DNA of 64,000 nt, from the IMG/VR virus record IMGVR_UViG_3300025018_000093. One strand, given 5' to 3'. Shown here one piece after another: positions 6,181 through 33,580 of this stretch. The DNA comes from a virus. Lineage: Duplodnaviria; Caudoviricetes. The position numbers and the translations under genes were made by a program. The notes under the pieces were generated by a model. That model made no database searches, had not been told where the DNA came from, and saw only the letters and a program-made list of their open reading frames with translations. Numbering within the stretch: position 1 is the stretch's first letter; each line of letters starts with the position of its first letter.

Positions 6181-7125
6181 TTGAATCCGAACCACATCCG
6201 GAAGGCTTGGCTCGCTGTGAATGTGCAGGATCCCTGGCACAACATTCGGGAAGCTTGCAAGCAAGCGCTTCTCCTGGAAGATCACCTCTTCCACCCAGCG
6301 AAGTATTGCGAAGATTGTATCAGCAAGCATCTCCTGATGATGGAAGCTCTCCTTGAGGAAGCCGTCACCCTGGACGTGTCAGGAAGCCTCCAGAAGCTCC
6401 TAGGAAGCCTTCTGACGCGCGTGCTGACCTACCAGGTACTTTGGGCCTCCGGTCGCGCGGACGCGCGTCAGCTTGCCCAGGCGTTGCGCAAATGGCGCAA
6501 GGGGATCTGCGCGCAGGTCCTCCGCCCTCGAACGGTACACACTTCGCGTGTGGCTTCTACAGAAGCTGCTCGAAACACTGCCCTGAACCTCATTGAAGAA
6601 TCTCCCGGGAAGTCGTTTGAAAGCCTGGCGAAGACGGTACGTCAGCACGCCCAGTACCTGCGGGACCCTGTTACTCGGCAACGTGTTGACGCGGAAGATG
6701 TGGTCGAGGAGTTGGCCAAGTTGATGGGTGAGGAAGAGGTCTCGGAGGAAGACAAGCTACCTGGGGGGTACATCACGGTCTATCACGCCACGGACAGGAG
6801 CACCGCGCAGGAGTTCCTGAAGCGAGGCGCTATCCCCGAAATGAAGCCCCGACCCCGAGTCCCGATGGAGTACGCTCCGGGGAGGGGTGTTGACGTGGGT
6901 CTTTACGTGGGTCACTCTGCGAAGGCAGTGGATTCCTACGGCCCTGTGGTGCTCTCTGTGGCTGTTCCAAAGAAGTGGCTGGAAGTGCCCACAGAACTGT
7001 CCCAGTTGGGCTACAAAGACCCACTGAGGGCTCTACACGAGCATGACGGGGCCATCATCAAGAAACGTATCCCAGCTTCGGCCTTCAAAGTCGTTTTGGG
7101 GAAAGTTGGAAGGAGTGCAGCATGA
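6181..7125 (+). CDS. Two-domain protein: CxxC-containing helical N-domain plus ADP-ribosyltransferase-like C-domain
   Basis: N-terminus HNIREACKQALLLEDHL...YCEDCISKH. C-terminus ITVYHAT...GRGVDVGLYVGHS...YGPVVLSVAVP resembles ART-fold strands. TTG start is uncertain. Confidence 0.55.
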   Translation: MNPNHIRKAWLAVNVQDPWHNIREACKQALLLEDHLFHPAKYCEDCISKHLLMMEALLEEAVTLDVSGSLQKLLGSLLTRVLTYQVLWASGRADARQLAQALRKWRKGICAQVLRPRTVHTSRVASTEAARNTALNLIEESPGKSFESLAKTVRQHAQYLRDPVTRQRVDAEDVVEELAKLMGEEEVSEEDKLPGGYITVYHATDRSTAQEFLKRGAIPEMKPRPRVPMEYAPGRGVDVGLYVGHSAKAVDSYGPVVLSVAVPKKWLEVPTELSQLGYKDPLRALHEHDGAIIKKRIPASAFKVVLGKVGRSAA

Positions 7126-7613
7126 GTCTGAAAGGAAGTATTATTCGCCTCGCGTACCAGCGCCCTGCTCTGCGGAAGCACCTGCTTCCGTTGGTCTCGG
7201 AGAAAACCGCTGCGGAAGAGGTTCCCCTGGATGTTCAGGATTTCTTGCTCCGCATAGAGCGCACGGTGAAGAGGTACTTTCCGAGGGGGCACTTCGGTAT
7301 CCGAGCTGCTAAGGGGTTGGCGAACAGCTACGACATCTACATGGTGACCGCGACGCTCCCCAAGGGAAAGCAGCCTAACGGAATCATGCAGAATGACCCA
7401 TCGTTCAACACCTTCTGGATGTTTGGAGCCTACACCCCAGAGAGGGGTATGAATCCAAAGATCAAAGTCGAGATGTCGCAGGGTGGGAAGCTCTACAGTC
7501 CGAATGCCTTCAAGGCACAAAAGATTGGGTGGCGGGACAAGACCGGCACACCCGCACAGATTATCGCCCACTTCGACCGCTACTATGCCACGCTCGCGTC
7601 CATGGTGGAGTGA
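7122..7613 (+). CDS. Hypothetical protein with N-terminal IRLAYQ motif (putative internal head protein)
   Basis: ATGA overlap with the upstream gene. Begins SLKGSIIRLAYQRPALRKHLLPLV. Confidence 0.75.
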   Translation: MSLKGSIIRLAYQRPALRKHLLPLVSEKTAAEEVPLDVQDFLLRIERTVKRYFPRGHFGIRAAKGLANSYDIYMVTATLPKGKQPNGIMQNDPSFNTFWMFGAYTPERGMNPKIKVEMSQGGKLYSPNAFKAQKIGWRDKTGTPAQIIAHFDRYYATLASMVE

Positions 7614-7628
7614 GGTGCGAGTTGTTAG

Positions 7629-7967
7629 ATGGCCAGTAAGTTTCATCCGGGAATTGAGATCCAACGTGCGGACATCCGCGTGTTTTTCACATACGATTGC
7701 GGGTCCCGGAGGAACGTTTGCGAGATCACCTATGCGCTTTACTATGTGGACCCCGGTCCACCAGAGGCAGAGGTTCTCATTGGGAGCCCACAGCGAACTC
7801 CTGTGAATCCCGAGGTGGGGGAGTATCACCCAGCGCTGTTCCTACCACTCAGTGCTGCTGTTGGATGGTACAGGCTCCGTTGGGTCTTTCGAAAGTCCCC
7901 AGAGTCCTTGCCTGAGCAAATTGTGATGCAGTTTCAAGTGGTGAGAAAGCTTCGGAGTCACGCATGA
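7629..7967 (+). CDS. Paralog of the N-extein domain of the downstream split gene (112 aa)
   Basis: Aligns end to end with aa 1-106 of the 7964 ORF (EITYALYYVDPGPPExEVLIG...QRTPVNPExGEY). Confidence 0.85.
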   Translation: MASKFHPGIEIQRADIRVFFTYDCGSRRNVCEITYALYYVDPGPPEAEVLIGSPQRTPVNPEVGEYHPALFLPLSAAVGWYRLRWVFRKSPESLPEQIVMQFQVVRKLRSHA

Positions 7968-8461
7968 CAATTCAATTCAATCCCGGAAGTGAGGTGCAAC
8001 GTGGGGATCTCTGCGCGTTCTTTCAGGATGCTTGTGGGTCCCGGACGAACATCTACGAGATCACCTATGCGCTCTACTACGTGGACCCCGGTCCCCCGGA
8101 GACAGAGGTTCTTATCGGGGCTGCACAGCGGACACCTGTGAATCCTGAGATGGGGGAGTACTACGCAGCACTGTACATCCCCCCGGACGCCATCGTGGGG
8201 AGCTATCGCATTCGGTGGACCTTCAAGGAAGCGAATGATGTTTCTCCTGCACAGGAGATCGTCATGGAGTTCCAGGTCGTGGCCAATGAGGCAACTCTGG
8301 GATGCCATTACAGTGCCTGCGTCCGGGAGCTGATGCGTCGGTTGCGCATTCACCTCCGAGATCAGTGTGTTGCTGGAGAGGAGTTGGTTGAAGTGATGGT
8401 CCACGGGGAGAAAATTGTGCTCCGAATGGACGAGCTTTGGGAGCTGACAAATGTCGAGTGA
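7964..8461 (+). CDS. N-half of a fractured head/neck structural gene: N-extein (aa 1-134) plus split-intein N-fragment
   Basis: Ends ...LRIHLRDQ|CVAGEELVEVMVHGEKIVLRMDELWEL-TNVE, an intein block A starting with Cys at 8366. Confidence 0.85.
   Translation: MTIQFNPGSEVQRGDLCAFFQDACGSRTNIYEITYALYYVDPGPPETEVLIGAAQRTPVNPEMGEYYAALYIPPDAIVGSYRIRWTFKEANDVSPAQEIVMEFQVVANEATLGCHYSACVRELMRRLRIHLRDQCVAGEELVEVMVHGEKIVLRMDELWELTNVE
8366..8458 (+). mobile_element. Split intein N-fragment (IntN, 31 aa)
   Basis: C1, then a block-A-like hydrophobic pattern and an 'IVLRMDELW' strand-helix typical of the intein N-terminus. Stop codon follows after 31 aa. Confidence 0.8.
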
Positions 8462-9356
8462 ACCACATTCTGTGTTGCTACCTTTGTTTGCGGAGCACGA
8501 TATCTCTTATGAAGTATTTCGTAAGAAGAGGAGACCTCCTCTGGGGATTCGGGAAAAAAGAGCTGCTATCGTGACCTGTCTACATCAACAGGGGTACTCG
8601 TGGTCTGAGATGATTTCAGTTACGGGCTTGTCTCAGGGGGCAATTCAAAGACTGACACAGGCCAAGGGTTGCGCCGCAGTACAGGAGAAGCTGAGGCTCC
8701 TGGGAACAGAGGTCGGGAAGTCCTGGAAAAGTCGCAAAAGACCAGGCCAACTTGAGCGGCAGTGGGAGACAGGGGTATTTGACCACCTTCGCGGACGTAA
8801 GCGTCCTGTCTGGGAGAGGGAGTGTTTGAAGGACTCTTGGACCCCAGAAAGAAGAGATGCCCAAGCTGTGCGTAGTTCTGAGACTGTATGGGGGGTCGAG
8901 GAAGTTCGAAATCGGATTCTGGCTTTCCACCGTTCTCCCGAAGAAAGGGCGCGGCGTTCTCGTCTTCAAACTCAGCGTATGCAAGAGAACCCTGTGAAGT
9001 ATCTTCGCGGGAAGGGTGGTTGGGTAGAAACTCCCAAGGGCGATAAAGATCAGGTTTTTGTGCGAAGTTCTTATGAGAGGGCGGCAATTTCTCTGCTAGA
9101 AGAGGACCCTCTGGTTATCAGTTACCAATTTGAGCCTCGATTTGTTCTTCTCAATGGTAAGTGGATACTTCCCGATTTCTTGGTACTTCCAAACCAGCCT
9201 CCCCACATACTCATCGAGGTGAAGGCTTCCTGGGTTTTGAAGCAAGCCCCCGATACAAAAGTACAACAGAGACTCCGTGCTGCTCAGAGCGTAGCTTCCG
9301 AAAGAGGCTGGAGCTTTGAGGTCTGGACGGAAGAGGAGTTGGCAGATGCTCTCTGA
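8451..9356 (+). CDS. Free-standing homing-endonuclease-like protein: HTH + TnsA N-terminal-like PD-(D/E)xK nuclease
   Basis: N-terminal HTH (GYSWSEMISVTGLSQGAIQRL). C-terminal RSSYERAA...YQFEP...PDFLV...LIEVK. Overlaps both flanking genes by 11 nt. Confidence 0.85.
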   Translation: MSSEPHSVLLPLFAEHDISYEVFRKKRRPPLGIREKRAAIVTCLHQQGYSWSEMISVTGLSQGAIQRLTQAKGCAAVQEKLRLLGTEVGKSWKSRKRPGQLERQWETGVFDHLRGRKRPVWERECLKDSWTPERRDAQAVRSSETVWGVEEVRNRILAFHRSPEERARRSRLQTQRMQENPVKYLRGKGGWVETPKGDKDQVFVRSSYERAAISLLEEDPLVISYQFEPRFVLLNGKWILPDFLVLPNQPPHILIEVKASWVLKQAPDTKVQQRLRAAQSVASERGWSFEVWTEEELADAL

Positions 9357-9741
9357 TGCGCAAAAAGAAAAGATCACTCGGGCCTTCCAGGAGAAGGCAT
9401 TGTGTGTAAGGTCTGTCTCTCCCGAGGGGCATTCCGAGTGGAAACGGGTTGTCCAGACGCATCGTGCTGAAGTGCCCTGGGAGGATATTTTTGAAGCAGA
9501 AACGGAGGGAGGGTCCTTTACTCTTACACGGGGACATCGTGTTTTCGTGACTCCTGTCGTAAAGGAGTCCATGGAGGACTTGAAAGAAGGTAGCACGGTT
9601 ACAGGTGTCCGAGAGGGAAAGGTAGTCGAGATTCCCCTTCGGGGTGTCAAGAGAGTGGCTTACCGCAGGTTCATGTATGATCTAACAGCGGAGGATTGGC
9701 ACAACTTTGTGCTGCATACCTCCGGTGTCCTGATCAGCAAC
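9346..9741 (+). mobile_element. Split intein C-fragment (IntC, 132 aa)
   Basis: TxxH block B, block F Asp, terminal Asn (9739-9741), +1 Ser. The penultimate residue is Ser rather than the usual His. Confidence 0.88.
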
Positions 9742-10239
9742 AGCCCCGACAAGTTCTATCACTTCCGGCCCCCAGAGCACGAGGGGCGCATCGGAAAGTT
9801 CAACAGGGTGTTTGGGCAAATCTGGGAGGACGAAGAGCTGCTGGTCTACCTCCAGACGGCGCTGACAGACTGGAATGCTAAGCCCCCGGAGACCGAGAGT
9901 CTTTGCACCTTGGATGCACTCTGCGCACACAAGCCTGTATGGACCGGCTACATCATGACGAGAGCTATGTTCTATGCTCTCTATGCCCTGGCAATCAACT
10001 GGGTCGCTGACGAGTTCGATTACAGTATCGGTGGAATCTCCCTCAATATTGACAAGTCGTCGAAGTATGAGCAGATGAAACAGAATGCTAAGGCCGAGTG
10101 GGACTCTCACGTCGAGACCAAGTTGCAAACCACCAAGCTCGTGCGTGGTCTGCAGCAACCGCGATTCGGTATCGGCATACGCAGCGCGTTCGGCCCACAT
10201 GTAGGCCGGGGTGTTTTGAGCCCCCGATCCTTCCTCTGA
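9346..10239 (+). CDS. C-half of the fractured gene: split-intein C-fragment (aa 1-132) plus C-extein (SPDKFYHFRPP...)
   Basis: ATG 9346 after GAGGAG. Intein block B TLTRGHRVF, block F MYDLTAEDWHNFV, block G LISN|S. Confidence 0.9.
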   Translation: MLSDAQKEKITRAFQEKALCVRSVSPEGHSEWKRVVQTHRAEVPWEDIFEAETEGGSFTLTRGHRVFVTPVVKESMEDLKEGSTVTGVREGKVVEIPLRGVKRVAYRRFMYDLTAEDWHNFVLHTSGVLISNSPDKFYHFRPPEHEGRIGKFNRVFGQIWEDEELLVYLQTALTDWNAKPPETESLCTLDALCAHKPVWTGYIMTRAMFYALYALAINWVADEFDYSIGGISLNIDKSSKYEQMKQNAKAEWDSHVETKLQTTKLVRGLQQPRFGIGIRSAFGPHVGRGVLSPRSFL

Positions 10240-10278
10240 GCAATTTTTTCTAAGTAATTACAATCACTTACGTTTTTC

Positions 10279-10307
10279 TGGACACGTCCTCAGACTTTTG
10301 CTACCTT
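10279..10307 (+). promoter_or_regulatory. Sigma70-like promoter candidate TGGACA-N17-TACCTT
   Basis: 17-bp spacing, in AT-rich intergenic DNA upstream of ORF 10337. Confidence 0.4.
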
Positions 10308-10336
10308 GATTCAGGTGGCAGTCGATGGAGGACCAC

Positions 10337-10480
10337 ATGCCAGTCAAATGCCCGTACTGCGGAAAAGAGTTTCAAGGTGACAAGCTCAACGCACGTCACT
10401 TGTCGAAGTGCAACCCTGAGCTGCAAGCAACCGTGCCCCCGTGCCTCTGCGGGCACGAGTCTACGTCATTGGGGTGTTAA
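10337..10480 (+). pseudogene. Short zinc-finger ORF (47 aa), probably a truncated endonuclease N-terminus
   Basis: SD GGAGG. MPVKCPYCGKEF...RHLSKC...CLCGH, then an early stop. Confidence 0.55.
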
Positions 10481-10654
10481 CGCGTTTTCGATTTCGTCTA
10501 CACAACGTAGTAGATTGGTTTGTACCTGCGTCTCTGAGAAGCGAAGTACTTGGAACCCTCTTTGTTCTAGGTGCTTTGTTTGCTTCTGGTCTTTTTCCAA
10601 TTGCTTTGGAAAACGGGAGCTATGCCAGTAGTCGCCATCCGCAATCTTCTGCTT
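10466..10654 (-). pseudogene. Vsr/DUF559-type endonuclease C-terminal fragment on the reverse strand
   Basis: My translation: KQKIADGDYWHSSRFPKQLEKDQKQTKHLEQRGFQVLRFSETQVQTNLLRCVDEIENALTPQ*. No ATG in frame before an upstream stop. Confidence 0.75.
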
Positions 10655-10699
10655 TGCAGAGCTTTTTTGTTCTGCTGTCTGAGCAAGCGGGGGAATGCT

Positions 10700-12181
10700 A
10701 TGACGTTACTTCGAGACCTGGTACGGTTAGCGTACAAGCATGCGCACCTGCGCCCTGCTTTGCTTCCCCTCCTGAGGGAGGCGGCCTCTGCGGATTCCTG
10801 GAATGAGGACAAGCACGGCAACAAGTGGAGAGAAGTGAGTGGTCGTGTGGAGTATGAGTTCGAGCCGGATGTACCTCCGAGCAGACGAACCTGGCCTCCT
10901 CGACAAGATCACATCAAGACTGCCGAGCTGGCAATGCTGCGGAACGGTTACAAGACCGACAAGTCCGACCTACTTCAAGTTGTGGAAGGTGAGAAGCTTG
11001 TGCGGTATTGCGTGCAAGTCCCTGCATTTCTCCCACCGAACAAGTCCGGTGTGAGCCGTATAGCACCCGTCAAGGTGCAACTGGACTTGCGAGGCCTGGT
11101 TGTGGACAAGAGGCCCTCGGATTGTGTACCCCTTCCGAGTCTTGTCGCCCGGTATGCCAGATTCATACACCAGGGTAGAAAAACAGTTCGACGTGACACC
11201 CTGAAAGGGTACTTCAAGTCTGGGTTCTATGTTCGATTTGGAGCATGGTCCGGCCCGTCTACGTTTGGACTTGTGACGAACAATGAGGATTACGACGAGT
11301 GGAGTGAGCTGGGGAAACGTCATGAGATGGGTGTGTCCGTTTACGGCGTGCGGCGGATACGAGGTCGTTGGGTACTGGAGGACATAGATCGTAGTCAAGC
11401 GGTCTATGGTGTTGGAGACTACTGGGAGCACATGCTTGGCAGTGTACTGCGGAACCGACCGCTCTATCTCGTTCGTGGTGTTCCCATTGCAATCGAAGAC
11501 TCCCAGAATCCTGACAAGCCCTACTTGGCTAAGGGATCCGACGGGGAGCCCCTGTTGGAGCTGGATTCCGTGCACAAGGTCCAACAACTGAACCCCTATG
11601 AGGTCTTCGTCATTGACACGAAATCGGAGTCTGGCGTGAACGTTGGGAATGAACTCTCTATAGGCGATGCTAGTTGGCAAGGACGGATTGTTTCGCAGCC
11701 AGCTGGAGAGACGGCAATGAATCGGAATGCAACGGGGCGCTTAGCCGGAAACGGGGTTTCTATTTGGTTTGGGGACTCCTTTATCGGGTCTCCAAAAGCT
11801 TTTGGCCAACGCGGATACCCAACGTTGCGGGAAGCTGTGTCCGCAGCAAAGGCGGCAGTGGGTAAGCTACCCTCCCCTCTAGTGGCGGAAGATCCTGGAT
11901 TCCTCCCACCGGGATCTGTAGGTAAGCCACTGGCATCAAGTTGGAAACTTGGTGAGGCTGTGAATGCGGGTATTGTTTTGCACTACCCCCAGCCAGGCGG
12001 GAAGAGCCTGTACATGGCTGCGAGTAACTACCTGGTGAAACGAAAGCATCGACCTGCGGATAGCTTATCCATGAAGCCTCTGCCGAAACAGAAGGGGACT
12101 TTGCGGCCTTTGCATGCAAGTGTGATTCGACTTGCCTACCAACACCCAGAGCTGCGAAAGCATCTTCTTCCGCTACTGTGA
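10700..12181 (+). CDS. Hypothetical multi-domain protein with the IRLAY motif at both termini
   Basis: ATG 10700. N-terminus LVRLAYKHAHLRPALLPLL; C-terminus SVIRLAYQHPELRKHLLPLL*. Confidence 0.8.
   Translation: MTLLRDLVRLAYKHAHLRPALLPLLREAASADSWNEDKHGNKWREVSGRVEYEFEPDVPPSRRTWPPRQDHIKTAELAMLRNGYKTDKSDLLQVVEGEKLVRYCVQVPAFLPPNKSGVSRIAPVKVQLDLRGLVVDKRPSDCVPLPSLVARYARFIHQGRKTVRRDTLKGYFKSGFYVRFGAWSGPSTFGLVTNNEDYDEWSELGKRHEMGVSVYGVRRIRGRWVLEDIDRSQAVYGVGDYWEHMLGSVLRNRPLYLVRGVPIAIEDSQNPDKPYLAKGSDGEPLLELDSVHKVQQLNPYEVFVIDTKSESGVNVGNELSIGDASWQGRIVSQPAGETAMNRNATGRLAGNGVSIWFGDSFIGSPKAFGQRGYPTLREAVSAAKAAVGKLPSPLVAEDPGFLPPGSVGKPLASSWKLGEAVNAGIVLHYPQPGGKSLYMAASNYLVKRKHRPADSLSMKPLPKQKGTLRPLHASVIRLAYQHPELRKHLLPLL
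12115..12154 (+). repeat. 40-bp DNA copy of the motif-coding segment (partner at 12361-12400)
   Basis: tgcaagtgtgattcgacttgcctaccaac(a/g)cccagagctg, 39/40 identical. Confidence 0.9.
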
Positions 12182-12262
12182 CAAGCTGGTAGGTAAGGAC
12201 AGAGGATTCAATTCCTCGTTTATAGTCTCAGGGGAGTGTTCCCCGACGTTGGAGGTTCTCAG

Positions 12263-12991
12263 ATGACTTTGATCCCGAAAGACAAGAAAGTATTTGATCA
12301 GTTCACGGACAAGAGGGCTAGTCGTTTTGCGGGTGCTGCCGTTTCCGAGCGATCCTTGCGTGCAAGTGTGATTCGACTTGCCTACCAACGCCCAGAGCTG
12401 AGAGGTCACCTGCTCCCTTTGCTGCGACAAGCTAGCAGTGTGGATATCGTTGCGAAGGTGGGCTATGGATTGCGAACGTTTGCAAGTAGCCTAGCTCCGA
12501 ATTGGACAGAAGATAGTGCCCTGGAATGGGCGGGTCTGCTCGACCGGAACAGGAACCTCTTCTCCTACTACAGACCGCTAATCCGTGGGGGTAAGTTTGT
12601 GGACCTCCCGGATGAAGTTCTGGATGAGATCCTCTCTTGGGAGGCCCCTCTGCTCAAGTTGTTCAAGAAAATGCAGTCGATCCTTAACAAGGTCGGATAC
12701 CCGCAACGAGTGGCCAACATGATGGCTGGTCTCACCGAGAGAGCAATCTATGTAGGTCATGCGGACCCCGTCCAGAAGATTTTGGAAAGCCTCGTGTTGT
12801 CGCTAGACGCCAGGAATGCTTACAAAGACCTCGGAGCGAAGGGAGAGCAGGTAGCTCGCATGATAGCGAAGCTTTCCAAGGTATCCCTGAAAATTGGGGC
12901 TGACACAGGTGTGAGTGACGTGGGTGAGAGTGTGACGGATGACGTGTATGATCTCGATGCGGAGTACAACAAGGACCTGCGTTCCTACTAG
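12263..12991 (+). CDS. Hypothetical protein with IRLAYQ motif
   Basis: ATG after GGAGG. Contains SVIRLAYQRPELRGHLLPLL. Confidence 0.8.
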   Translation: MTLIPKDKKVFDQFTDKRASRFAGAAVSERSLRASVIRLAYQRPELRGHLLPLLRQASSVDIVAKVGYGLRTFASSLAPNWTEDSALEWAGLLDRNRNLFSYYRPLIRGGKFVDLPDEVLDEILSWEAPLLKLFKKMQSILNKVGYPQRVANMMAGLTERAIYVGHADPVQKILESLVLSLDARNAYKDLGAKGEQVARMIAKLSKVSLKIGADTGVSDVGESVTDDVYDLDAEYNKDLRSY

Positions 12992-14054: not shown

Positions 14055-14717
14055 ATGCCGTACAATCAGTTGGCGCTTTTCCGGTCTGCTGGAAGTGATC
14101 CCTATTTCTCCAAGCGGGCAGAGTTCAAGATGTCCCCGGCAGACAAGAAGGTCTTGGATGCTTTCGTTGACAAAGAGTCTGCGGACTCCAAGAAGTTGTC
14201 CTCCGATGGAAAGACGCTGGATGGCAACTGGATGGGCGGTAAGGGAATTGCCGTGTGGAAGGGTGACAAGATCCATCTTGAGGATACGGGTGGAAAGTCT
14301 GCGGATACGATCCACCGTGCCATCCGCAAGATGGCCCCTCGTAACCTGGTAGCAGCGTCCCGTCAGGCAGCCGTCAGGCAGGGGGTTCGCTCCCTCATCC
14401 ACAAGCTCGCTCGGATGTCCGACGAGGCGCGGGAGCTGGAGTTGTTCATCGAGAATGACGGGCAGCTCTACCGGCAGCAGTATGCTCCGATCATTCAGAA
14501 CCTGATGCGCAAGCGGAACAAGGGGGTGTATGACTTCGCCCTGAGCATCAAGCTCTTCATGTACCTGGCAGACGCTGGTGCCAAGAAGTACCACGCTGAG
14601 TTTGGATCACCAGGGCTCCCCTGGAACAAAGCCTTCCCCAAGGCGACACGAATGGAAGTTGCCAAGTCTTTGGCAGAGTCCTTCCTGACTGAGGCTGAGT
14701 CCGGTGGATATCAGTGA
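14055..14717 (+). CDS. Hypothetical two-domain protein (putative internal virion protein)
   Basis: ATG after GAGG. The second domain ARELELFIENDGQLY...KGVYD...KLFMYL...GAKKY looks like a phage hypothetical family. Confidence 0.75.
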   Translation: MPYNQLALFRSAGSDPYFSKRAEFKMSPADKKVLDAFVDKESADSKKLSSDGKTLDGNWMGGKGIAVWKGDKIHLEDTGGKSADTIHRAIRKMAPRNLVAASRQAAVRQGVRSLIHKLARMSDEARELELFIENDGQLYRQQYAPIIQNLMRKRNKGVYDFALSIKLFMYLADAGAKKYHAEFGSPGLPWNKAFPKATRMEVAKSLAESFLTEAESGGYQ

Positions 14718-14813: not shown

Positions 14814-15977
14814 ATGGCTGGAACACCCCATGGAATCCATTCAATAGTCAGTGCCTATGCTTCGAATGAAATTGCGGTGCAGGCACAGTTCTGTCGAATC
14901 ATTGCGGCCCTTGATCACGTAGAGGCCTTCGGTTACTGCACACGGATCGCGAGCTACTACGGGCTGACCGGCACGGGGTTTGGGATGCCTGGAAGCGGGG
15001 CTGAGCCTGGTCGCTGGGCATTTGCGGTGTATCGTTGGAACGCCAATGCGGGGCGGACTTGGGAGTGGTACCTGCTTGTGCAATTTGGGATGGGTTCCGC
15101 AGTAGGGTCTGGGGGTGAGCCCACGTACCCAATGTACCTTTCGGATCCGAATCTTTTGTTTGCATCTGCTGTGGCGTTTGACCAGTTAGGGGCGCCGGCA
15201 AACCCTTGGAGAGGTACTGTACTGAACAATGGCGCGGATTCCAAAGCGGCCACTGTTTGGGGGAAGCCCACGGGTCATGTCGATGAGAGAGTTTATGCAT
15301 GGCCTCGGTGTAACGACACGGGTGGGACCTATGCAACGAATAAGCAGTCGCTAGCTGTTGCAGAGGCTGTGTCCTCAAGTAACTACTATGGCTATACTAT
15401 GCGGTCGCATGTGCTATGCGATGCAGATGGTTTCTTTTACGGTCATGACCGCATGAATGAGGGGGAGAGTGTTGGTTTTATCATCGTTGCTCCCTACACC
15501 CCCTTGGACGGACTCTCGGCCAGAGCCCCGCTATTCATGCTCACGAGGGGTAGTGTTGGGGAGGTCCCTCTCGATGTATCTATTGGGGCTATTGGGACTT
15601 CGAATGTGGACGGAGGTGTGTTTTCACCGAAAGCAGACCAGGTTAACATCTGTCGCATTTACACGCGAGCTTCGGACTACACGGAGACGGCATACCCAGG
15701 CTATCAAAGCAACCACCAATTCACGACAAAGACCGTCACCGCCGTGCGAATCCCACTGTATGTGTATGAAGCGCCGTACCAGGGGTTTCTGGGCTATCTG
15801 GATGACTTTGTCATGCTGTCTTCTGCTGTCGTTCGAGGCAGCACGCTTCAGAGTAAGTCCTATGTGGGGTTGTTGTCCGACCATCTCAGCAATGGGGAAG
15901 GTGTTGGGATCGTGAAGTGGGATGGTGTAACCGCAGATCCAATGGCGGGTAACAGTTCCCTTGGGGTGACTTTCTGA
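14814..15977 (+). CDS. Tandem paralog 1 of 3, putative fibre/receptor-binding or decoration protein
   Basis: Begins MAGTPHG, ends WDGVTADP...GVTF. Shares CxRIASYYG, WYLLxQ and PWxGTVL motifs with the next two genes. Confidence 0.75.
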   Translation: MAGTPHGIHSIVSAYASNEIAVQAQFCRIIAALDHVEAFGYCTRIASYYGLTGTGFGMPGSGAEPGRWAFAVYRWNANAGRTWEWYLLVQFGMGSAVGSGGEPTYPMYLSDPNLLFASAVAFDQLGAPANPWRGTVLNNGADSKAATVWGKPTGHVDERVYAWPRCNDTGGTYATNKQSLAVAEAVSSSNYYGYTMRSHVLCDADGFFYGHDRMNEGESVGFIIVAPYTPLDGLSARAPLFMLTRGSVGEVPLDVSIGAIGTSNVDGGVFSPKADQVNICRIYTRASDYTETAYPGYQSNHQFTTKTVTAVRIPLYVYEAPYQGFLGYLDDFVMLSSAVVRGSTLQSKSYVGLLSDHLSNGEGVGIVKWDGVTADPMAGNSSLGVTF

Positions 15978-15986
15978 GGTGTTGGT

Positions 15987-17186
15987 ATGAGTGGAACTCC
16001 ACATGGTAGGCATTCAATCTATTTACCTCCGTCTCCGCTATCAACTGAGGATGCGGCGAAAACCCACTTTGTGGCGATTATCAAAGCACTTGATGCGATT
16101 GCAGCGTCTGGTAATTGCGCGCGGATTGCCTCGTTTTACGGTTCCGGAGGGACTGGATTTGAGTATCCCGATTCCGGCCTGGGATCTCCAGGCAACACCG
16201 CCTTTGTCGTGTACCGATGGGGTACATCAACTGGGAAACCCTTTTCGTGGTACTTATTGGTCCAGTATGCCTACGGGTCAACCTTCAATACGGCAGGGAA
16301 CGGTCAACCTGCTCTGTACCAGGGCGGAAATGGAATAACTAGCGCCTGCTGTGTAGGCTTTTCTGTAGCAGTTGCGTTTGATCAGTTTGGAACCTCCGTA
16401 AGCCCCTGGAAGGGAACTGTACTGGATGACGGGACGGATACAAAAGCCAACCCTGTTTGGGACGTGCCAACAGGTCATCTTGATGAGCGGCTGAGTGTCT
16501 GGCCAAGATCCAATAATCCTGGAGGGTCTCATGCTACCGCACGACAGAACCTGACAACCTTCTATCAAGCTACATCAACTACGCTGAATAGCGTAGAGAC
16601 GTTGCTTTTTCTGGTAGCCGACGCAGACAGTATGTTTATCACGTCGGACGTTTACTGTAATGGCACTATTGATACGATTGCTTTCGTCACCCCGATCTCT
16701 GTGATTGCTGAGCTGGAGGCACCCTCACAGGCTTCATTGTACGCTATGGGTTCAAACACTCCGTATAACTTGTTGAATGCTGCGATGCCTAATGCTACGG
16801 CTGGTACAGGCGATCCCAATGGGGGCGTTTTCTCTCCTCTACTTGAGTACCCTGTAGCAGGGATTGTCTACACGAGATCGCCGGACACGAGTAACGTGAG
16901 TCCTTACCAGCCAACGAAACAAGCGGAGACCCGAAAGAATATCCTGTTTCCGTTTGCTGTGTACGCTGACGAGACTCCAAACAAGGGTTTTGTGGGCTAT
17001 GCCTGGCCGTTCATCCAGTATTCCCAGCTTGTTCCCGCGTATGCTACGCTGGACAACAAGCTGAAAGTGTCTTTGTCAACAGGACTAAGTCGCACAGGGG
17101 GCGGGATGCTTAACTTCATAGTTCCGTGGGATGGTGTGACGGCAGATCCTTCGTCCGGTCGTACACGTGAAGGTGTGACGTTTTAG
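15987..17186 (+). CDS. Tandem paralog 2 of 3
   Basis: MSGTPHG...CARIASFYG...WYLLVQ...PWKGTVL...WDGVTADP...GVTF. Confidence 0.75.
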   Translation: MSGTPHGRHSIYLPPSPLSTEDAAKTHFVAIIKALDAIAASGNCARIASFYGSGGTGFEYPDSGLGSPGNTAFVVYRWGTSTGKPFSWYLLVQYAYGSTFNTAGNGQPALYQGGNGITSACCVGFSVAVAFDQFGTSVSPWKGTVLDDGTDTKANPVWDVPTGHLDERLSVWPRSNNPGGSHATARQNLTTFYQATSTTLNSVETLLFLVADADSMFITSDVYCNGTIDTIAFVTPISVIAELEAPSQASLYAMGSNTPYNLLNAAMPNATAGTGDPNGGVFSPLLEYPVAGIVYTRSPDTSNVSPYQPTKQAETRKNILFPFAVYADETPNKGFVGYAWPFIQYSQLVPAYATLDNKLKVSLSTGLSRTGGGMLNFIVPWDGVTADPSSGRTREGVTF

Positions 17187-17195
17187 GGGGAGCGG

Positions 17196-18344
17196 ATGGC
17201 CGGTACACCACATGGAATAATCTCGATAGCCTCTGGGGGCTCAAGTAACCCCTTCGCAGATATCGTGATGGCTCTTGACTACCTAGAGTCCACGTATGGG
17301 ACCTGCGAGCGCATCGCGAGCTACTATGGCCAAGACAGTTCCATTCCGACTAATTATGGAACGGGGCTAGGTCGCGGACAGTTCCTGCAGCGTGCCTTCG
17401 TCGTTTACAAGTTTCCGGCGAACTCGGGGAGACTTTACGACTGGTATCTGCTGATGCAGGTTTCGTGGGGCAACCTCACGTTTGACCTCAGCAACAACTT
17501 GATCAATGGAAATAGCAATGCCACTACGGGATTGGCGTTAGGCTTTCAGGTAGCGATTGCCCTGGATAGTGCCGGCAACACCGTGAACCCTTGGCAGGGT
17601 ACCGTGTTGAATGATGGGACAGATACGAAGCCCACAGTTGGATGGGATGCTCCGGTAGGTGGAAAGCTTTTTGTCTGGGGCAGATCCAACTCTCCGCTAG
17701 ATGGCACCTACGCAACCAATCGAAACAATACGATAGGGGTGCGTGACGCAACGAGTGTGTCAGACTTGGCACGGCGGATACACGTCATTGCAGATGATGA
17801 CTGTCTTGCGATCTATCACCAGAACGAAACCAGTTCGAAGCACATTTACTATTTCATTGCCTCCCCGGTGATTCCCGTCACGAACCTCACATTTGATGTG
17901 CCGTTCGCAGTGCTTTGTCGCACAGCAGTTGTGAACAGTTCCCTCTGGGGTACTTTTCCTAGTGCAGTGAATGAAAACTCCACAACGAACGGCGGCGTCA
18001 ACGCTCCGATCCCTGGAAACGTGGTGTCGGCGCATGGTGACTACGCCAGATTGTTGGGGGACGAGTCGGACACCTTCCAGCCGAACAACCAATTTGCTTC
18101 GACCACCTACACAGAGACACCCGTGTTCCTGTACGCGGAGGAAAACCCCTACAAGGGGCTAATCGGGCAGCTTGATCCTTTTGTTCGCAAGACCTTTCGG
18201 GTGACCTACAACTCGACTTTGAACTCGATGACTCGCGTTGCGTTGGGGTTCGATTCAACCACCTACAAGATGCGCATGACTCTGCCCTGGGATGGTGTGA
18301 CCACCGATCCTTTGTCTGGTGGAGCCACCGGAATCCAGTTCTAG
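17196..18344 (+). CDS. Tandem paralog 3 of 3
   Basis: MAGTPHG...CERIASYYG...WYLLMQ...PWQGTVL...WDGVTTDP...GIQF. Confidence 0.75.
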   Translation: MAGTPHGIISIASGGSSNPFADIVMALDYLESTYGTCERIASYYGQDSSIPTNYGTGLGRGQFLQRAFVVYKFPANSGRLYDWYLLMQVSWGNLTFDLSNNLINGNSNATTGLALGFQVAIALDSAGNTVNPWQGTVLNDGTDTKPTVGWDAPVGGKLFVWGRSNSPLDGTYATNRNNTIGVRDATSVSDLARRIHVIADDDCLAIYHQNETSSKHIYYFIASPVIPVTNLTFDVPFAVLCRTAVVNSSLWGTFPSAVNENSTTNGGVNAPIPGNVVSAHGDYARLLGDESDTFQPNNQFASTTYTETPVFLYAEENPYKGLIGQLDPFVRKTFRVTYNSTLNSMTRVALGFDSTTYKMRMTLPWDGVTTDPLSGGATGIQF

Positions 18345-18353
18345 GAGTGTCCC

Positions 18354-18623
18354 ATGGCAGATTTCGGGGCGGTGTTTTTGGCGGAGCAGCCCGTAGCTTT
18401 GGAACCGAGCTTGGAGTTGTCGGTAGACTTTGCTTTGGGAACTCCTAGTGGTGGAATCCCCTCCATACGTTACTACTATATGCGTGCCTGGAATACGAAC
18501 TTGAGCGCCTACGTGCATTGGCGCGTCCCTGACGAGCCAGACTTTGTGGGCACGTATAGCGGGTATCCGACAGGGGACATTCAAGACGCAACTGTGCTGA
18601 TGTTCGAGATGTCAGACCAGTAA
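18354..18623 (+). CDS. Hypothetical protein (89 aa)
   Basis: ATG after AGGAG, directly downstream of the paralog triplet. Confidence 0.65.
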   Translation: MADFGAVFLAEQPVALEPSLELSVDFALGTPSGGIPSIRYYYMRAWNTNLSAYVHWRVPDEPDFVGTYSGYPTGDIQDATVLMFEMSDQ

Positions 18624-18680
18624 CTTCAACAGCAACCTGCCATATGAGGGAAAGTCCTGTGTTCCTTCTGGGAGATTGAG

Positions 18681-19046
18681 ATGGCATCGCGTCAGCAGCA
18701 GCAACAACTTTTGTCACTAGTGACTCAGATTCTTCAAGATAGCGCGGAGGATGGCAGGAAGGAGGAAATGGTCTTTGGGAAAGCTCTGGAAGACCTTATC
18801 CTCACAGCTAGTGCGGAGGCTGTCACGGCGAGTCGCTTTTTGGACCTGCTCATTACAGCTCTGAGCCGAGACGATTCGCACTCTCTGGATAACGCGGTGA
18901 AAGCTCTCAAGGGGTCCTTGCTTGCGTTATCCCGCGTGGCGGAGAACGTGGGGCGCTTCTACGGGAACCCGAACCAACGTCTTCGTGTTCGTGCGGCCTC
19001 TGCGGAGAGAGTCGCGCAGAGGTACCTGGAAGGGAAAGACGAGTGA
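18681..19046 (+). CDS. Hypothetical helical protein ending in an RVAQRYL motif
   Basis: ATG after GGAG. 121 aa. Confidence 0.7.
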   Translation: MASRQQQQQLLSLVTQILQDSAEDGRKEEMVFGKALEDLILTASAEAVTASRFLDLLITALSRDDSHSLDNAVKALKGSLLALSRVAENVGRFYGNPNQRLRVRAASAERVAQRYLEGKDE

Positions 19047-19129
19047 GGACTCCAGGGTTTTGGTATACCTTTGATTGTTTTGCTTAGGTAGGGGGCAGGT
19101 TGCCTGAGAATGTATGACTGAGGTTTCCC

Positions 19130-19621
19130 ATGACAGCCAATGGTTTTGACTTATCTCAATGTGTGCTTCACCATGAACGCATTGTTGAGTTGCGAAAGGA
19201 CGTCCAGGAGCTACAACAACATCTTTCCTGCAAGGCTCTGGGGGAGGATGTTCGTGGGATCAACCAACGTCTTGACAAGTTTGCCTCTGGGATGCTGGAA
19301 AAGATGAAGGGGGACACACAACTTGCGGCACGTGTGGACCACCACCATGAGTTGCTGTTGTTCCTGGATGAGGTTCTCATCCGAGGGACCTCCAATAGCT
19401 CTTCCATAAAGGCTGTTGTGGAGAACCTTCGTCAGGAGGTTGGTCAGCTTTCGGATTTCTACCGGCAACTGGATAGTTTCGTTTCCGACTTGAAGCGGGA
19501 GAGAGTAGCCATAGACGTGGCTCGGATACATGCTACGTCGTCCAATTGGAAAACGATTGCGATTCTTCTGGGGACCTTTCTCACAGCGCTTGCCAGTCTT
19601 TTTGTCGCTCTTCTTACATGA
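19130..19621 (+). CDS. Coiled-coil protein with a single C-terminal transmembrane helix
   Basis: Helical heptad-like body, then the hydrophobic tail WKTIAILLGTFLTALASLFVALLT. Confidence 0.7.
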   Translation: MTANGFDLSQCVLHHERIVELRKDVQELQQHLSCKALGEDVRGINQRLDKFASGMLEKMKGDTQLAARVDHHHELLLFLDEVLIRGTSNSSSIKAVVENLRQEVGQLSDFYRQLDSFVSDLKRERVAIDVARIHATSSNWKTIAILLGTFLTALASLFVALLT

Positions 19622-19628
19622 GGACAAC

Positions 19629-19865
19629 ATGCTTGATCAAAGTCCTTTGCAGACCTTGATGACCTTAGTTGAGGCCGTCATCTCCGATGGGAAGCGGGTG
19701 ATGAGTTACACCGAGCTTCAAAACCGGCTCACGGCTCTGGGGATGGAGATTGAGGAGGGGAAGAGTCCGGAGGAAGCCTACAAACAAGCAGAGCTTCACT
19801 TCAAACGGTCGCAATCCCCCTCTCCGGAAGCCACACTGGTTCCTGTAGGGGAAAAAGCGAAGTAG
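19629..19865 (+). CDS. Hypothetical protein (78 aa)
   Basis: ATG after GAGGA. Confidence 0.6.
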   Translation: MLDQSPLQTLMTLVEAVISDGKRVMSYTELQNRLTALGMEIEEGKSPEEAYKQAELHFKRSQSPSPEATLVPVGEKAK

Positions 19866-19982
19866 CTGGGCAACTACCTATCTGTCTTTGGTAGAACATA
19901 GCTGGACAGGTCTCCTGGGAGGCGTCACGCTTTCTGGGAGGCTTTCACGCCTCCAGAGAGGCTACAGAAAAGGGTCACCAGT

Positions 19983-20324
19983 ATGACAGAGGAAAGCAGC
20001 AAGGTGGTTGGGCAGGTTGATGCGGCGGAGATGCAGTCTATCAACTCTCTGCAGACACGAGAGCAGGAGTTGACGTATCGTGTCGGTCAATTGTTCCGGG
20101 AAGCTCTCTCCGTTGCCATGCAGGCGGGTGAGGCTCATCATGGATTGCAGCGAGTGATGCAGGGGCTTCGCCAGCGCATGAGCATTCCCGACGACAGTCT
20201 GTTCCGCATTTCCTATGACGGAAACATTCATCTTGTGGCGCCTCCAGCCCCCGAGGGTGGTGCTACACCGGAAGCGGAGGCACCCATCGTGAAGACGAAG
20301 GAAGACGCCTCAGAAGAGGAATGA
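19983..20324 (+). CDS. Hypothetical protein (113 aa)
   Basis: Helical ORF, immediately followed by the next gene. Confidence 0.65.
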   Translation: MTEESSKVVGQVDAAEMQSINSLQTREQELTYRVGQLFREALSVAMQAGEAHHGLQRVMQGLRQRMSIPDDSLFRISYDGNIHLVAPPAPEGGATPEAEAPIVKTKEDASEEE

Positions 20325-21929
20325 GTGACTATCGGTTGGGACCCACAGTCTTTTCCTGCCGGGGACTTCCCCATGCCTCCCTTCAACGGGGAAGTGGTGA
20401 GTCCTCTTTTCCAGGGCACGTTAGACATTCGCTGGGACAACCCAGCCATCCTGTCTGCAAACACCCCATGGCAGGTTGTGGGGGTCAACCTCTATCGCTC
20501 CGATGTGGGGGAGCGGGGTCCCTATCACCGGATCAACGAGTACCCCTTGGGGGGTTCGTTTTACCGGGACTTCACGGATAACCTCCTGGTGAGTCAGGAG
20601 GTTATCCGCTGGGGCCAAGATTGGATCTATCAGGGGAATGGGCCGAACCATCGGCACTATCGATTTCGTACGCAGTGCCCCATCGTGAAGTCTGGAAACC
20701 GAGTCTTACCGCTCCCCACTGGGGTAGATCCTGTTTCCAACTCCGGGGTAGGGTGTCCAACCTTCGTCCCTGGGGCGGTCACTTCTGCGATGAGTGGTCC
20801 TTTTCCTTTCGTCTACGCAAATGCTCCAGAAGACGTGGTCGTGTCCATAGATGGGCAGGTTGTCCCCGTGGATTCCGTGTTTGGGTTAGCGGGAGAGGTG
20901 ACGCTGATTGACCAGCCTTACTTCGATTCGGTGGCGCAGAGTCTCATCCCACCTGTGCTGCCATCTGCAGACTCCCAGGTCTGGGTCACGTACAGGACGA
21001 ATCGTAACGTTGTCCGATACGAGCTAGACCGCAAGATTTTCTACAGGTTGACGACAGTCGCGGTGGCCAATGACCCGGAGGTCCCCGGTGGCCTGGTTGA
21101 GACCCCTCTCAAGTACGCCCAACCACTCACGCCGATCAAAGTAGAGTCCTTGGATTGGGTGTGGCGGGAAGCCGTGCGGAGGAACAATTGGGTCCTGGAG
21201 CAGGGTGGAGAGAGAGTCAAGGCGTTCGTTCGCAAGACGGCTGGAGTTCCCTGCCACTGCATCTGGGATGCACGGAAGAGATCCTATACAGGGCAGCCCC
21301 GGAACAGGTGTTTGACCTGCTACGGGAGTGGATTTGAGGGTGGTTACGAGGGTCCTTATGAGATCATCATTGCTCCAGATGATGCAGAGAGACGGATTTC
21401 TCAGACACTGCGTGGACGTAACCTCGACCACACCTATGAGGTATGGACAGGACCCACACCGCTATTGACGATGCGAGACTTCGTGGTCAAGCAAACCAAT
21501 GAGCGCTACAGCATTGGCCCTGTCCGAAAACCCTCCAGTCGTGGGAACATCCTGCAACAGCATTTCAACATCAAGTATCTTGACGAGGGGGACATTCGCT
21601 ATCGTGTTCCCGTGGACAATCTCTCGGGGATGCCTTGGCCGGGGAGTCGCACCACAGTGGATCCCGGAGAGGAGAAGCTGGTCTACCCCGTGGCCGAGTA
21701 TGGACCCATGCACCAGCTCACACCCAGTGAGCATAGTCCGCAGGAGTACCCTGTCGAGCCCGATCCCCACCAGGCCACTCCAATGGCCACGGAGAAGGAT
21801 AACATCGGTGATTCCAGGGAGCATCGCGGTCGCACGAAAACTTGGGAGAATCAGAACTATCTTTGGTGGTTGGCTCCCTTTGTGCTGGGGTTACTCCGTT
21901 GGGTGGAGGTGATGTCCAATGGAATCTAA
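20325..21929 (+). CDS. Putative head-closure/neck protein with a Cys4 zinc motif
   Basis: FN3-like N-terminus (LDIRWDNP...GVNLYRS) and PCHC...RCLTCYGSG motif. The call is mainly positional. Confidence 0.5.
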   Translation: MTIGWDPQSFPAGDFPMPPFNGEVVSPLFQGTLDIRWDNPAILSANTPWQVVGVNLYRSDVGERGPYHRINEYPLGGSFYRDFTDNLLVSQEVIRWGQDWIYQGNGPNHRHYRFRTQCPIVKSGNRVLPLPTGVDPVSNSGVGCPTFVPGAVTSAMSGPFPFVYANAPEDVVVSIDGQVVPVDSVFGLAGEVTLIDQPYFDSVAQSLIPPVLPSADSQVWVTYRTNRNVVRYELDRKIFYRLTTVAVANDPEVPGGLVETPLKYAQPLTPIKVESLDWVWREAVRRNNWVLEQGGERVKAFVRKTAGVPCHCIWDARKRSYTGQPRNRCLTCYGSGFEGGYEGPYEIIIAPDDAERRISQTLRGRNLDHTYEVWTGPTPLLTMRDFVVKQTNERYSIGPVRKPSSRGNILQQHFNIKYLDEGDIRYRVPVDNLSGMPWPGSRTTVDPGEEKLVYPVAEYGPMHQLTPSEHSPQEYPVEPDPHQATPMATEKDNIGDSREHRGRTKTWENQNYLWWLAPFVLGLLRWVEVMSNGI

Positions 21930-22368
21930 GACCGCCATCAAACGAATGCAGGCGCCTGCTTTCCGAAGAAAGGGGAGACAGTATGTCATCCACGAGATAG
22001 CGGGGGTTCCGAAGGATAAGTGGGATGAGATGCCCTTCCCTCAGAAGATCCAGTCCGTTCAGGATTACTACATCACGTTGACGAAGCGGCCCAAGCTCAC
22101 AAACGTGCTACGCAAGCACATGAATGCGATGAAGCGATGGTTCAATATCCAGAAGCGTAAGCACAAGCCCTGGCGCTCTCGCATCCAGAACTTCTTCGAC
22201 CATCGTGTCAAGCGCATTCGGGACAAGAAGGTTCTTCGAGACAAGAAGATGACTCGTGATGGAGGATTTGCTCACCAGGACGTGGCTATGTATCGTGCTC
22301 TGGTGCGGTTGGCCTATCAAAAACCGGAGCTACGGGGTAAGCTACTTCCCTTGATCCTGGGGGACTAA
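21919..22368 (+). CDS. Basic hypothetical protein with C-terminal VRLAYQ motif
   Basis: Ends ALVRLAYQKPELRGKLLPLILGD. Very Lys/Arg-rich. Confidence 0.7.
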   Translation: MESKTAIKRMQAPAFRRKGRQYVIHEIAGVPKDKWDEMPFPQKIQSVQDYYITLTKRPKLTNVLRKHMNAMKRWFNIQKRKHKPWRSRIQNFFDHRVKRIRDKKVLRDKKMTRDGGFAHQDVAMYRALVRLAYQKPELRGKLLPLILGD

Positions 22369-33577: not shown

Positions 33578-33580
33578 CGT

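Follow-up and report, generated by a model that had tools for sequence, protein, structure and literature searches.

The window analysed here was a 64,000-nucleotide DNA stretch from an uncultured aquifer phage (Caudoviricetes; IMG/VR record IMGVR_UViG_3300025018_000093), in which the same two-helix peptide of about 25 residues occurred on four otherwise unrelated proteins. The public runs holding this stretch were aquifer DNA runs only, and no RNA run was listed. Five copies of the peptide (the tag), all on the + strand, were located within 15 kb beside neck and tail genes. Immediately before carrier 4 came a neck or head-closure-like gene (20325–21929), the product of which had a head-closure-like fold. 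A weak tail-terminator match and an M15 tail-lysin-like peptidase were also present near the tags. The tag spans given below are the 25-residue profile matches, and the strict regex cores are shorter.

7122–7196, +, tag copy 1, extreme N-terminus of ORF 7122–7613 (163 aa), 50.0 bits
7143–7196, +, strict regex core of copy 1
7197–7613, +, body of carrier 1, basic (pI 9.6)
7203–7214, +, K-T-A-A after copy 1, with S-E between the tag and K-T-A-A
10700–10774, +, tag copy 2, N-terminus of ORF 10700–12181 (493 aa), 40.6 bits
10721–10774, +, strict regex core of copy 2
10775–10786, +, R-E-A-A after copy 2
10775–12103, +, body of carrier 2, no relatives and no known fold
12104–12178, +, tag copy 3, extreme C-terminus of ORF 10700–12181, 40.3 bits
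12125–12178, +, strict regex core of copy 3
12263–12349, +, N-terminal extension before the tag in ORF 12263–12991, 29 residues
12350–12424, +, tag copy 4, residues 30–54 of ORF 12263–12991, 55.4 bits
12371–12424, +, strict regex core of copy 4
12425–12436, +, R-Q-A-S after copy 4
12425–12991, +, body of carrier 3, no relatives
21919–22281, +, body of carrier 4, very basic (pI 11.2)
22282–22356, +, tag copy 5, residues 122–146 of 149 in ORF 21919–22368, 39.8 bits
22303–22356, +, strict regex core of copy 5

A regex search and two HMM scans in six frames found just these five copies, at the places named in an earlier sequence-only reading of the DNA. The copies scored 39.8–55.4 bits against a family profile of 86 copies, and the per-protein E-values ranged from 7e-12 to 1e-22. 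The next best six-frame match in the window reached only 3.4 bits (E 2.8); hence, chance was excluded for the five copies. The window version of the tag was (I/V)RLAYQxPELRxxLLPL. In copy 3, the stop codon followed LLPLL at once, and copy 5 was followed by three residues and then the stop. The small-residue sites claimed after the N-side copies (KTAA, REAA and RQAS) were present. RVAQRYL at the end of ORF 18681, which had been noted as related, was rejected as a sixth copy because it gave no match to the family profile even at E 1000. The 10700 protein was tagged at both ends. The public gene call for this ORF started at a TTG at residue 21, which cut the tag, and that for the 12263 ORF started at a GTG at residue 60, after the tag. 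The ATG at 10700 had a G-rich Shine–Dalgarno site, and GGAGG was located 8 nt upstream of the ATG at 12263. The longer reading of both ORFs was supported by these sites and by the in-frame tags.

The four carrier bodies showed no significant mutual similarity when the tag was masked, and three of them were without relatives, which upheld the earlier claim that they are unrelated. The body of carrier 1 had no relative but itself among 5.8 billion proteins, an ESM Atlas look-up of the carrier 2 body returned nothing usable, and no close relatives of carrier 3 were found in IMG/VR. The window carriers gave no Pfam or PHROG match, and megablast of the region against GenBank phages gave none either. 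ORF 6181–7125 was rejected as an ART, as it had no similarity to the ART-PolyVal carrier described below.

An HMM of the motif, the check proposed with the sequence-only reading, was built and used to scan the window and its relatives; it recovered the five window copies and a large family in the relatives. The family consensus was M-x-x-LRSK(L/V)IRLAHxNPELRPHLLPLLK(E/T)A(A). The profile matched 4,432 representative proteins at E ≤ 1e-3 and 1,017 at E ≤ 1e-10, and many of the matched proteins had 2–7 copies. Related huge-phage contigs in IMG/VR carried 8–15 copies each. Only 7 weak or short loci, mostly on small lake-MAG contigs, were found in 185,579 species genomes, and the tag occurred in only one of 50,697 GenBank phage records, an uncultured 485-kb phage (LR745208.1; IMGVR_UViG_3300025030_000038). 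Among 96 copies from the relatives and the window, about 70 were at the predicted N-terminus, 6–8 were C-terminal and the others were internal; the tag was also found between domains and in tandem. The carrier bodies were diverse. The recognised ones included an ADP-ribosyltransferase of the polyvalent-protein type (ART-PolyVal; L014:7466–8314), an RNA ligase (L002:8641–9951), and DUF5710, pentapeptide-repeat, DUF2958, LRV, GNAT and WGR domains. No family was common to the 79 and 103 carriers scanned with Pfam-A and PHROGs, and some carriers in the relatives were true paralogues. The LRV matches were located in the bodies of two carriers, off the tag, and an origin of the tag from LRV or HEAT-like repeats was rejected according to hhalign against the carrier LRV repeats (probability 0.16%). 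The best hit of the tag profile in a PDB sequence search was a designed repeat protein (E 3.2), a chance match. A full-text literature search for the tag strings and for huge-phage targeting peptides returned nothing relevant. The pI of the carriers as a class showed no difference from the background (p 0.71); the proposal that they are, as a class, basic DNA-binding internal proteins was rejected on this ground, although carrier 4 was very basic.

The evolution of the copies was explored at the codon level. Synonymous codons between copies were near random (56 of 144 the same vs 41.6 expected), with the exception of one young adjacent pair. Such scrambling indicates that the peptide, rather than the DNA, was under selection. 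The exception was copies 3 and 4 (12104–12178 and 12350–12424), in which 14 of 21 codons for identical residues were the same (6.4 expected) and the DNA similarity extended past the stop codon (TGA vs CGA). Copy 3 is a young local DNA duplicate of copy 4. In the syntenic slot downstream of a conserved gene, the related contig L010 carried the tag (9998–10342) on a body different from that of carrier 1, and only the 33-residue tag was shared between the window and L010 at this slot. Moreover, RLAY occurred in all five window copies and in 12 of 81 elsewhere, and another contig had IKLA in 5/5 copies. The tag identity was 72.5% within genomes and 67.6% between genomes, a difference reached by 0 of 2000 permutations. 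These genome-specific variants fit one reader per genome.

The structure of the tag was predicted by AlphaFold2 with the 86-copy alignment, and two helices (6–16 and 18–34) were obtained with a mean pLDDT of 84.8. The model was helix–Pro–helix. In the favoured explanation, this module would fold alone and would not be part of the folds of the bodies. The motif [KR]-x-A-[ASG] was about 21 times commoner at the tag borders than in the rest of the same proteins (0.078 vs 0.0038 per position). It was on the body side, after N-terminal copies and before C-terminal ones, and the downstream profile was K 50%, E 25%/K 20%, A 43% and A 29%. Both C-terminal window copies were without an upstream [KR]-x-A. 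AlphaFold extended helix 2 through K-x-A-A, and S, T, N or D at position −1 is a classical helix N-cap. An alternative reading of the junction residues is therefore that they simply cap and extend the helices.

A portable tag on unrelated proteins, as the sequence-only reading had it, is strongly supported by the unrelated bodies, the body swap at a common slot, the varied positions, the selection on the peptide and the thousands of carriers. Its most likely role is that of a docking or address label. In the favoured reading, an uncultured huge-phage clade would graft it onto many unrelated proteins, and one shared, probably phage-encoded, partner would read it. The preferred destination would be the head during its assembly, at the scaffold core, the inner surface of the shell or the portal; the virion would then carry the tagged proteins inside, and they could reach the next host together with the DNA. 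The body-side [KR]-x-A-[A/S/G] could be a maturation-protease cut site for removal of the tag. Binding to a common partner, its location in the head and cleavage of the tag are what we infer; the whole reading, from portable docking label to head destination and possible cleavage, is judged to fall slightly short of an even chance, and capsid loading with trimming of the tagged proteins is proposed tentatively, as somewhat less than evenly probable.

Indirect hints of head loading came from bodies that resemble effectors, from the location of the tags near neck and tail genes and from the [KR]-x-A sites beside them. Clustering of the conserved neighbours around tags gave only synteny with neck and tail genes, together with a heterogeneous chain including Dps/ferritin-like proteins, and yielded no candidate reader. 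In the five related contigs, no match was found to the HK97 or T4 capsid models (PF05065, PF07068; the T4-model controls were silent too), to the S78 head protease (PF04586; the controls worked) or to the S77 gp21-like protease (PF03420; silent in the control genomes as well). The head reading was weakened by the 92%-complete 485-kb relative, in which the copies were scattered genome-wide instead of being limited to a head module, and by the fact that known phage propeptides and the T4 capsid-targeting sequence (CTS) are N-terminal, whereas the tag is position-independent. Nor did the pI of the carrier bodies aid it, since they were not unusually basic as a class. The cleavage step was weakened by the helix-capping reading of the junction and by the C-terminal window copies without the upstream motif.

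Docking inside an HK97-fold shell is the function of encapsulin cargo-loading peptides and of the coat-binding C-terminal helix-turn-helix domain in the P22 scaffolding protein; these modules are short terminal peptides or two-helix basic ones, which can be at either terminus and in multiple copies. A two-helix shape is predicted for the tag as well, with no sequence relation to them (no PDB match). T4 internal proteins have the CTS alone in common, and the CTS also loads foreign proteins (PMC3012670). Effectors carried in capsids have precedents in the T4 Alt ADP-ribosyltransferase, which is packaged and injected, and in polyvalent proteins (PMC5512222). Like the tag, the T4 CTS (IPI–III and Alt; removed by gp21) is a short, mostly N-terminal peptide on diverse fast-evolving proteins, including an ADP-ribosyltransferase, with a small-residue junction after it and the same portable logic. 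The tag is nevertheless not a T4 CTS and is not homologous to it, the two sequences having no similarity. The CTS has about 10 residues, resembles MKTYQEFIAE and is N-terminal, whereas the tag has about 25 residues in two helices, and 26–28 of its 96 copies (2/5 in the window, both C-terminal) are internal or C-terminal. The gp21 site is (L/I)-x-E followed by a small residue, whereas the tag junction is [KR]-x-A-[ASG]; only window copy 2 (L-R-E-A) fits L-x-E. Furthermore, tagged clients far outnumber those of the CTS, with at least 8–15 per contig and thousands of families. Many proteins are packed by giant phages, in which N-terminal propeptides, some as short as 20–24 residues, are trimmed (PMC10052503). 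About 80% of the head proteins of SPN3US are uncleaved. The propeptides of phiKZ-like phages and SPN3US are cut at A-x-E by the prohead protease, from which the tag junction differs, and, unlike the tag, they have no single conserved portable sequence. The MuF/SPP1 gp7 handle is similarly a common module thought to carry varied effectors (ART and others) into the capsid (PMC5512222), but MuF is a large folded head-protein domain, the tag has 25 residues, and no MuF domain was found on the scanned carriers.

The tag may instead dock to a partner outside the capsid, so that many phage proteins gather at one intracellular hub, for example a replication or transcription factory, a chaperone, a protease, a machine of the host or the actin-like (volactin) filament of the phage itself. 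This alternative is rather unlikely. In its favour, position independence (N-terminal, C-terminal, internal and tandem copies) is typical of short docking motifs, the copies are spread across whole genomes, some bodies are enzymes working in the cytoplasm, and the genome-specific flavours of the tag fit any co-evolving reader. A volactin homologue was present in 3/5 tag-bearing contigs, and the one in the window was 1.5 kb from copy 5. However, of 36 viral loci taken around a volactin gene at their centre, 33 had no tag within 10 kb, and an 89%-complete 234-kb volactin phage had zero tags; volactin was therefore not favoured as the reader. No candidate hub was identified, and the effector-type bodies and the virion-gene neighbourhood fit packaging equally well or better.

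The tag may also be a self-associating sticker, through which tagged proteins bind each other or multi-tag hubs and form a multivalent network, e.g., an internal scaffold, an inner body or a condensate; this would be compatible with head loading. Many proteins have 2–7 tags parted by highly charged, low-complexity linkers, some are little but tags (63 aa with two, 321 aa with four), and in proteins of about 1000 aa a long charged stretch is flanked on either side by three diverged tags. The doubly tagged 10700 protein of the window is of the same kind. Multivalent attachment to a lattice, the capsid shell for instance, would however predict multi-tag proteins just as well, and fusion of tagged paralogues gave rise to at least some internal tags (repeated tag–LRV-domain units, P0097). 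A co-fold of two tag copies with the 86-row alignment scored 0.16 (mark, 0.42) and was evidence neither way. Self-association is considered improbable. It is very improbable that the tag is part of one shared folded domain or a by-product of a repeated DNA element (a promoter or RBS cassette, or a recombination site): the recent duplication of copies 3 and 4 and the true paralogues among the relatives' carriers speak for it, but the tests contradict it, including the shared domain that the sequence-only reading had named as grounds for its own refutation: the masked bodies are dissimilar, three are without relatives, many different Pfam domains are borne, similarity to the L010 neighbour ends after 33 residues and the codons are scrambled, and a start-site cassette would be senseless for C-terminal and internal copies.

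Beyond the favoured docking label with a head destination, a bolder extension is a general phage-encoded protein-sorting system, so far undescribed, for which the tag would serve as address label. In this system, which is unlikely as a whole, one dedicated reader, possibly with multi-tag hubs forming an internal scaffold or condensate, would collect dozens of unrelated effectors per genome, and a non-canonical protease would release them at [KR]-x-A. If it were true, sequence alone would suffice to list the proteins that thousands of uncultured huge phages sort, whether by packaging or by compartmentalisation. Huge phages have hundreds of proteins without an assigned role, and one label on thousands of them would offer a sequence-only handle on a common fate, e.g., packing and injection as a first-strike toolkit against host defences. 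The tag would also offer a compact transplantable label with which large capsids could be filled with foreign proteins, a use to which the T4 CTS has already been put. Current annotations hide it, as it is missed by Pfam and PHROGs and partly clipped by public gene calls in the window. The window itself adds a divergent RLAY variant, a double-ended tagged protein, a local duplication caught in the act and the same-slot body swap. The extension before the tag in the 12263 protein contained a second short module, DKKVFDQFTDK, which was also found at the N-terminus of ORF 14055–14717 as a weak match (E 0.012).

Exactly five copies of the tag, a peptide of about 25 residues with the form (I/V)RLAYQxPELRxxLLPL, were recovered in the window via a regular expression and two profile scans in six frames. 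All of them lay on the plus strand at the places named by the sequence-only reading, and none was found elsewhere.

7122-7196, plus strand: N-terminus of carrier 1 (ORF 7122-7613)
10700-10774, plus strand: N-terminus of carrier 2 (ORF 10700-12181)
12104-12178, plus strand: C-terminus of carrier 2
12350-12424, plus strand: near the N-terminus of carrier 3 (ORF 12263-12991)
22282-22356, plus strand: C-terminus of carrier 4 (ORF 21919-22368)

These copies scored 39.8-55.4 bits with a profile of 86 family members, whereas the runner-up match in the whole 64 kb reached only 3.4 bits; they were confined to 15 kb, with zero copies in the other 49 kb. RVAQRYL at the end of ORF 18681, earlier called related, gave no profile match even at E 1000 and was rejected as a sixth copy. 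Public gene calls began two of the carriers within or past the tag, ORF 10700 at a TTG (residue 21, cutting the tag) and ORF 12263 at a GTG (residue 60, skipping it). The ATGs adopted here for both were preceded by Shine-Dalgarno sites, and automated annotation probably undercounts tags.

The DNA identity among the five coding stretches was only 69%. Codon agreement at identical residues between copies (56/144, against 41.6 expected from codon usage) was near chance, which argues for selection on the peptide and not on the DNA. Only the neighbouring copies 12104-12178 and 12350-12424 departed from this: they shared 14 of 21 codons (6.4 expected), and their DNA likeness ran beyond the tag end, TGA-CAA-GCT in the first and CGA-CAA-GCT in the second. 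This pair is a young local duplication, one copy of which ends a protein while the other lies near the start of the next; the remaining copies are old and kept by selection on the amino-acid sequence. When the tag was masked, the four carriers had no significant mutual similarity. Pfam and PHROG searches of the carriers gave zero matches, and three of the bodies (carriers minus tag) found only themselves among 5.8 billion proteins, in agreement with the earlier claim of unrelated bodies. A shared fold, the circumstance named beforehand as fatal to the tag, or a DNA-level repeat is contradicted by these dissimilar masked bodies and by the near-chance codons outside the one young pair. The lowest value in the masked BLAST comparison (E 0.012) came from a short second N-terminal module common to ORF 12263 and ORF 14055. 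This module, DKKV[FL]D[QA]F[TV]DK, was located at 12263-12349 in the tagged ORF and at 14055-14200 in the untagged one, and is possibly another portable peptide.

The gene at 6181-7125, upstream of carrier 1, was matched in the IMG/VR locus L010 by a homologue with 44% identity over 118 residues. The following gene began with the tag in both phages, and the likeness stopped after 33 residues, so that slot and tag are shared but the cargo is not. The window backbone at 20-53 kb was syntenic with locus L013, where a 112-aa tag carrier (L013:9995-10330) occupied the place of about 6 kb of other genes in the window (33463-39396). Hence, tagged genes behave as accessory, swappable insertions in a conserved frame.

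A search with the five-copy alignment recovered 35 loci on large IMG/VR contigs (up to 485 kb), in which a profile search yielded about 100 tag copies. The family consensus was M-x-x-LRSK(L/V)IRLAHxNPELRPHLLPLLK(E/T)A; in the window variant, Tyr replaced His and the middle Pro was mostly missing. The wider distribution is summarized below.

Table. Occurrence of the tag.
1.84 billion representative proteins, 86-copy profile: 4,432 at E<=1e-3 and 1,017 at <=1e-10, many with 2-7 copies
Five related contigs: 8-15 copies apiece, dispersed along the genome
185,579 prokaryotic species, one genome each: 7 loci, mostly short lake-MAG contigs
50,697 GenBank phage records: one uncultured 485-kb phage

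In a 92%-complete relative, copies were likewise spread genome-wide. The tag had zero matches in Pfam, PHROGs and PDB sequences, and its sequence strings had none in the full-text literature. The tag thus forms a new sequence family that has no name; it behaves like known cargo tags and is a member of none. The copies also had a genome flavour: RLAY occurred in 5/5 window copies versus 12/81 elsewhere, and IKLA replaced IRLA in 5/5 copies of another contig. Tag identity was 72.5% within genomes and 67.6% between them, a difference reached in 0/2000 permutations. Such flavours fit a tag-binding partner encoded per genome; inheritance of a single ancestral tag in each lineage would produce an identical pattern.

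Among 96 copies, about 70 were within a few residues of the predicted start, 6-8 were C-terminal and the remainder were internal. A Shine-Dalgarno-like 4-mer preceded 58% of N-terminal copies versus 24% of random positions. AlphaFold2 and the family alignment placed two helices in a 35-residue piece (6-16 and 18-34, mean pLDDT 84.8), joined by the conserved Pro. The position before helix 1 was S, T, N or D, the classical N-cap residues. The junction [KR]-x-A-[A/S/G] flanked N-terminal copies on the downstream side, C-terminal copies on the upstream side and internal copies on both, and was about 21 times commoner at tag borders than in the rest of these proteins. In the window, the small-residue sites reported earlier were present at all three N-side copies (KTAA, REAA, RQAS); the junction was missing upstream of both C-terminal copies. 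In C-terminal copies, the stop typically fell 1-3 residues past LLPLL.

A portable tag is thus well supported by the unrelated bodies, the cargo swap in the same slot, the thousands of family proteins and the varied positions. Strong hydrophobicity and conservation set the tag apart from a linker, and such diverse bodies cannot all include it in their folds. Its tolerance of varied positions argues for docking of a folded client, not threading from one end. The preferred reading is an address label that a single common partner would bind, with the assembling head as the most likely destination and trimming at the junction possible; this combined reading is offered tentatively, as somewhat short of probable. 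An alternative reading of the junction is helix capping and extension. The multi-tag proteins suggest, as a less likely rival compatible with head loading, that tags self-associate into a multivalent network. The linkers of these proteins were low-complexity and highly charged, and some of the proteins comprised little beyond two to four tags; in others, repeated tag-LRV-domain units look like fused tagged paralogues. Two proteins of about 1000-1100 aa (P0081, P0084) had a long Lys/Glu-rich region with three diverged tags close to either end, and could be multivalent hubs or resemble scaffolds. The linkers of the metagenomic multi-tag proteins P0001, P0006, P0110 and P0122 contained more small recurring modules (such as CEKLPEGPMRDNC, GEVPEAFKKQW and an FDP..EI...EPYMKG.FT block), which hints at a wider short-peptide vocabulary in these phages.

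The head is favoured as the destination by effector-like bodies, known cargo-tag precedents and the position among virion genes. General precedents include the cargo peptides of encapsulins and the two-helix coat-binding end of the P22 scaffold. The T4 capsid-targeting sequence (PMC3012670) and the propeptides of giant phages (PMC10052503) are further precedents. Most carrier bodies across the family had no recognisable domain; those recognised were as follows.

L014:7466-8314: ART-PolyVal ADP-ribosyltransferase, tag N-terminal
L002:8641-9951: RNA ligase, tag near the C-terminus
Other bodies: DUF5710, DUF2958, pentapeptide repeats, LRV/HEAT repeats, GNAT, WGR, zinc ribbons

Several are types assigned by Iyer and colleagues to phage "polyvalent proteins", which are believed to travel inside the capsid; the classic example is T4 Alt, an ART that is packaged and then injected (PMC5512222). 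Carrier 4 was very basic (pI 11.2); unusual basicity of the bodies as a class was looked for by pI comparison and was not found. The 534-aa protein at 20325-21929, conserved in six related contigs, matched head-closure and minor-capsid folds at residues 284-422 (ESM Atlas model) and is probably a neck protein. A weak tail-terminator match occurred at 26280-27497, with an M15 peptidase further along, and the tag-bearing stretch adjoins neck- and tail-like genes. As a destination, the capsid is a plausible candidate; a tag partner outside it is somewhat less likely. The window also encoded a volactin-type actin homologue (23874-25991, Pfam E 4e-71), split by a LAGLIDADG-containing intein; intein-free homologues occurred in many viral contigs. 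Volactin was not favoured as the partner, as most of these viral-contig loci were tag-free nearby and an 89%-complete volactin phage lacked any tag.

The stretch 7122-22368 comes from a large, uncultured tailed phage. The window DNA was found almost only in aquifer metagenome runs, and no close relative was found among GenBank phages. Dps/ferritin-like genes (DUF5856/Ferritin, DUF5661) were observed at L012:10324-11616, L022:10292-11233 and L019:1654-2460, directly downstream of small tag carriers in two contigs. At 14814-18344, three paralogues in tandem, each about 385 aa long and starting MAGTPHG or MSGTPHG, belonged to a virus-only family with zero Pfam or PHROG matches and zero homologues in the fetched loci. 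The window also coded for several very large proteins and for an M15 peptidase domain (47415-49334). Perfect direct repeats (802-1012 = 5254-5464, 211 nt; 3889-4009 = 5969-6089, 121 nt; 100% identical) copied parts of two ORFs, 2-1057 (tail-fibre-like) and 3554-4270, into 5.1-6.2 kb, where mosaic ORFs resulted; the cause is a very recent duplication or else an artefact of assembly. A putative patatin-like phospholipase signature, G-G-G-x-K-G, was recognised by eye near the N-terminus of 2120-3067.
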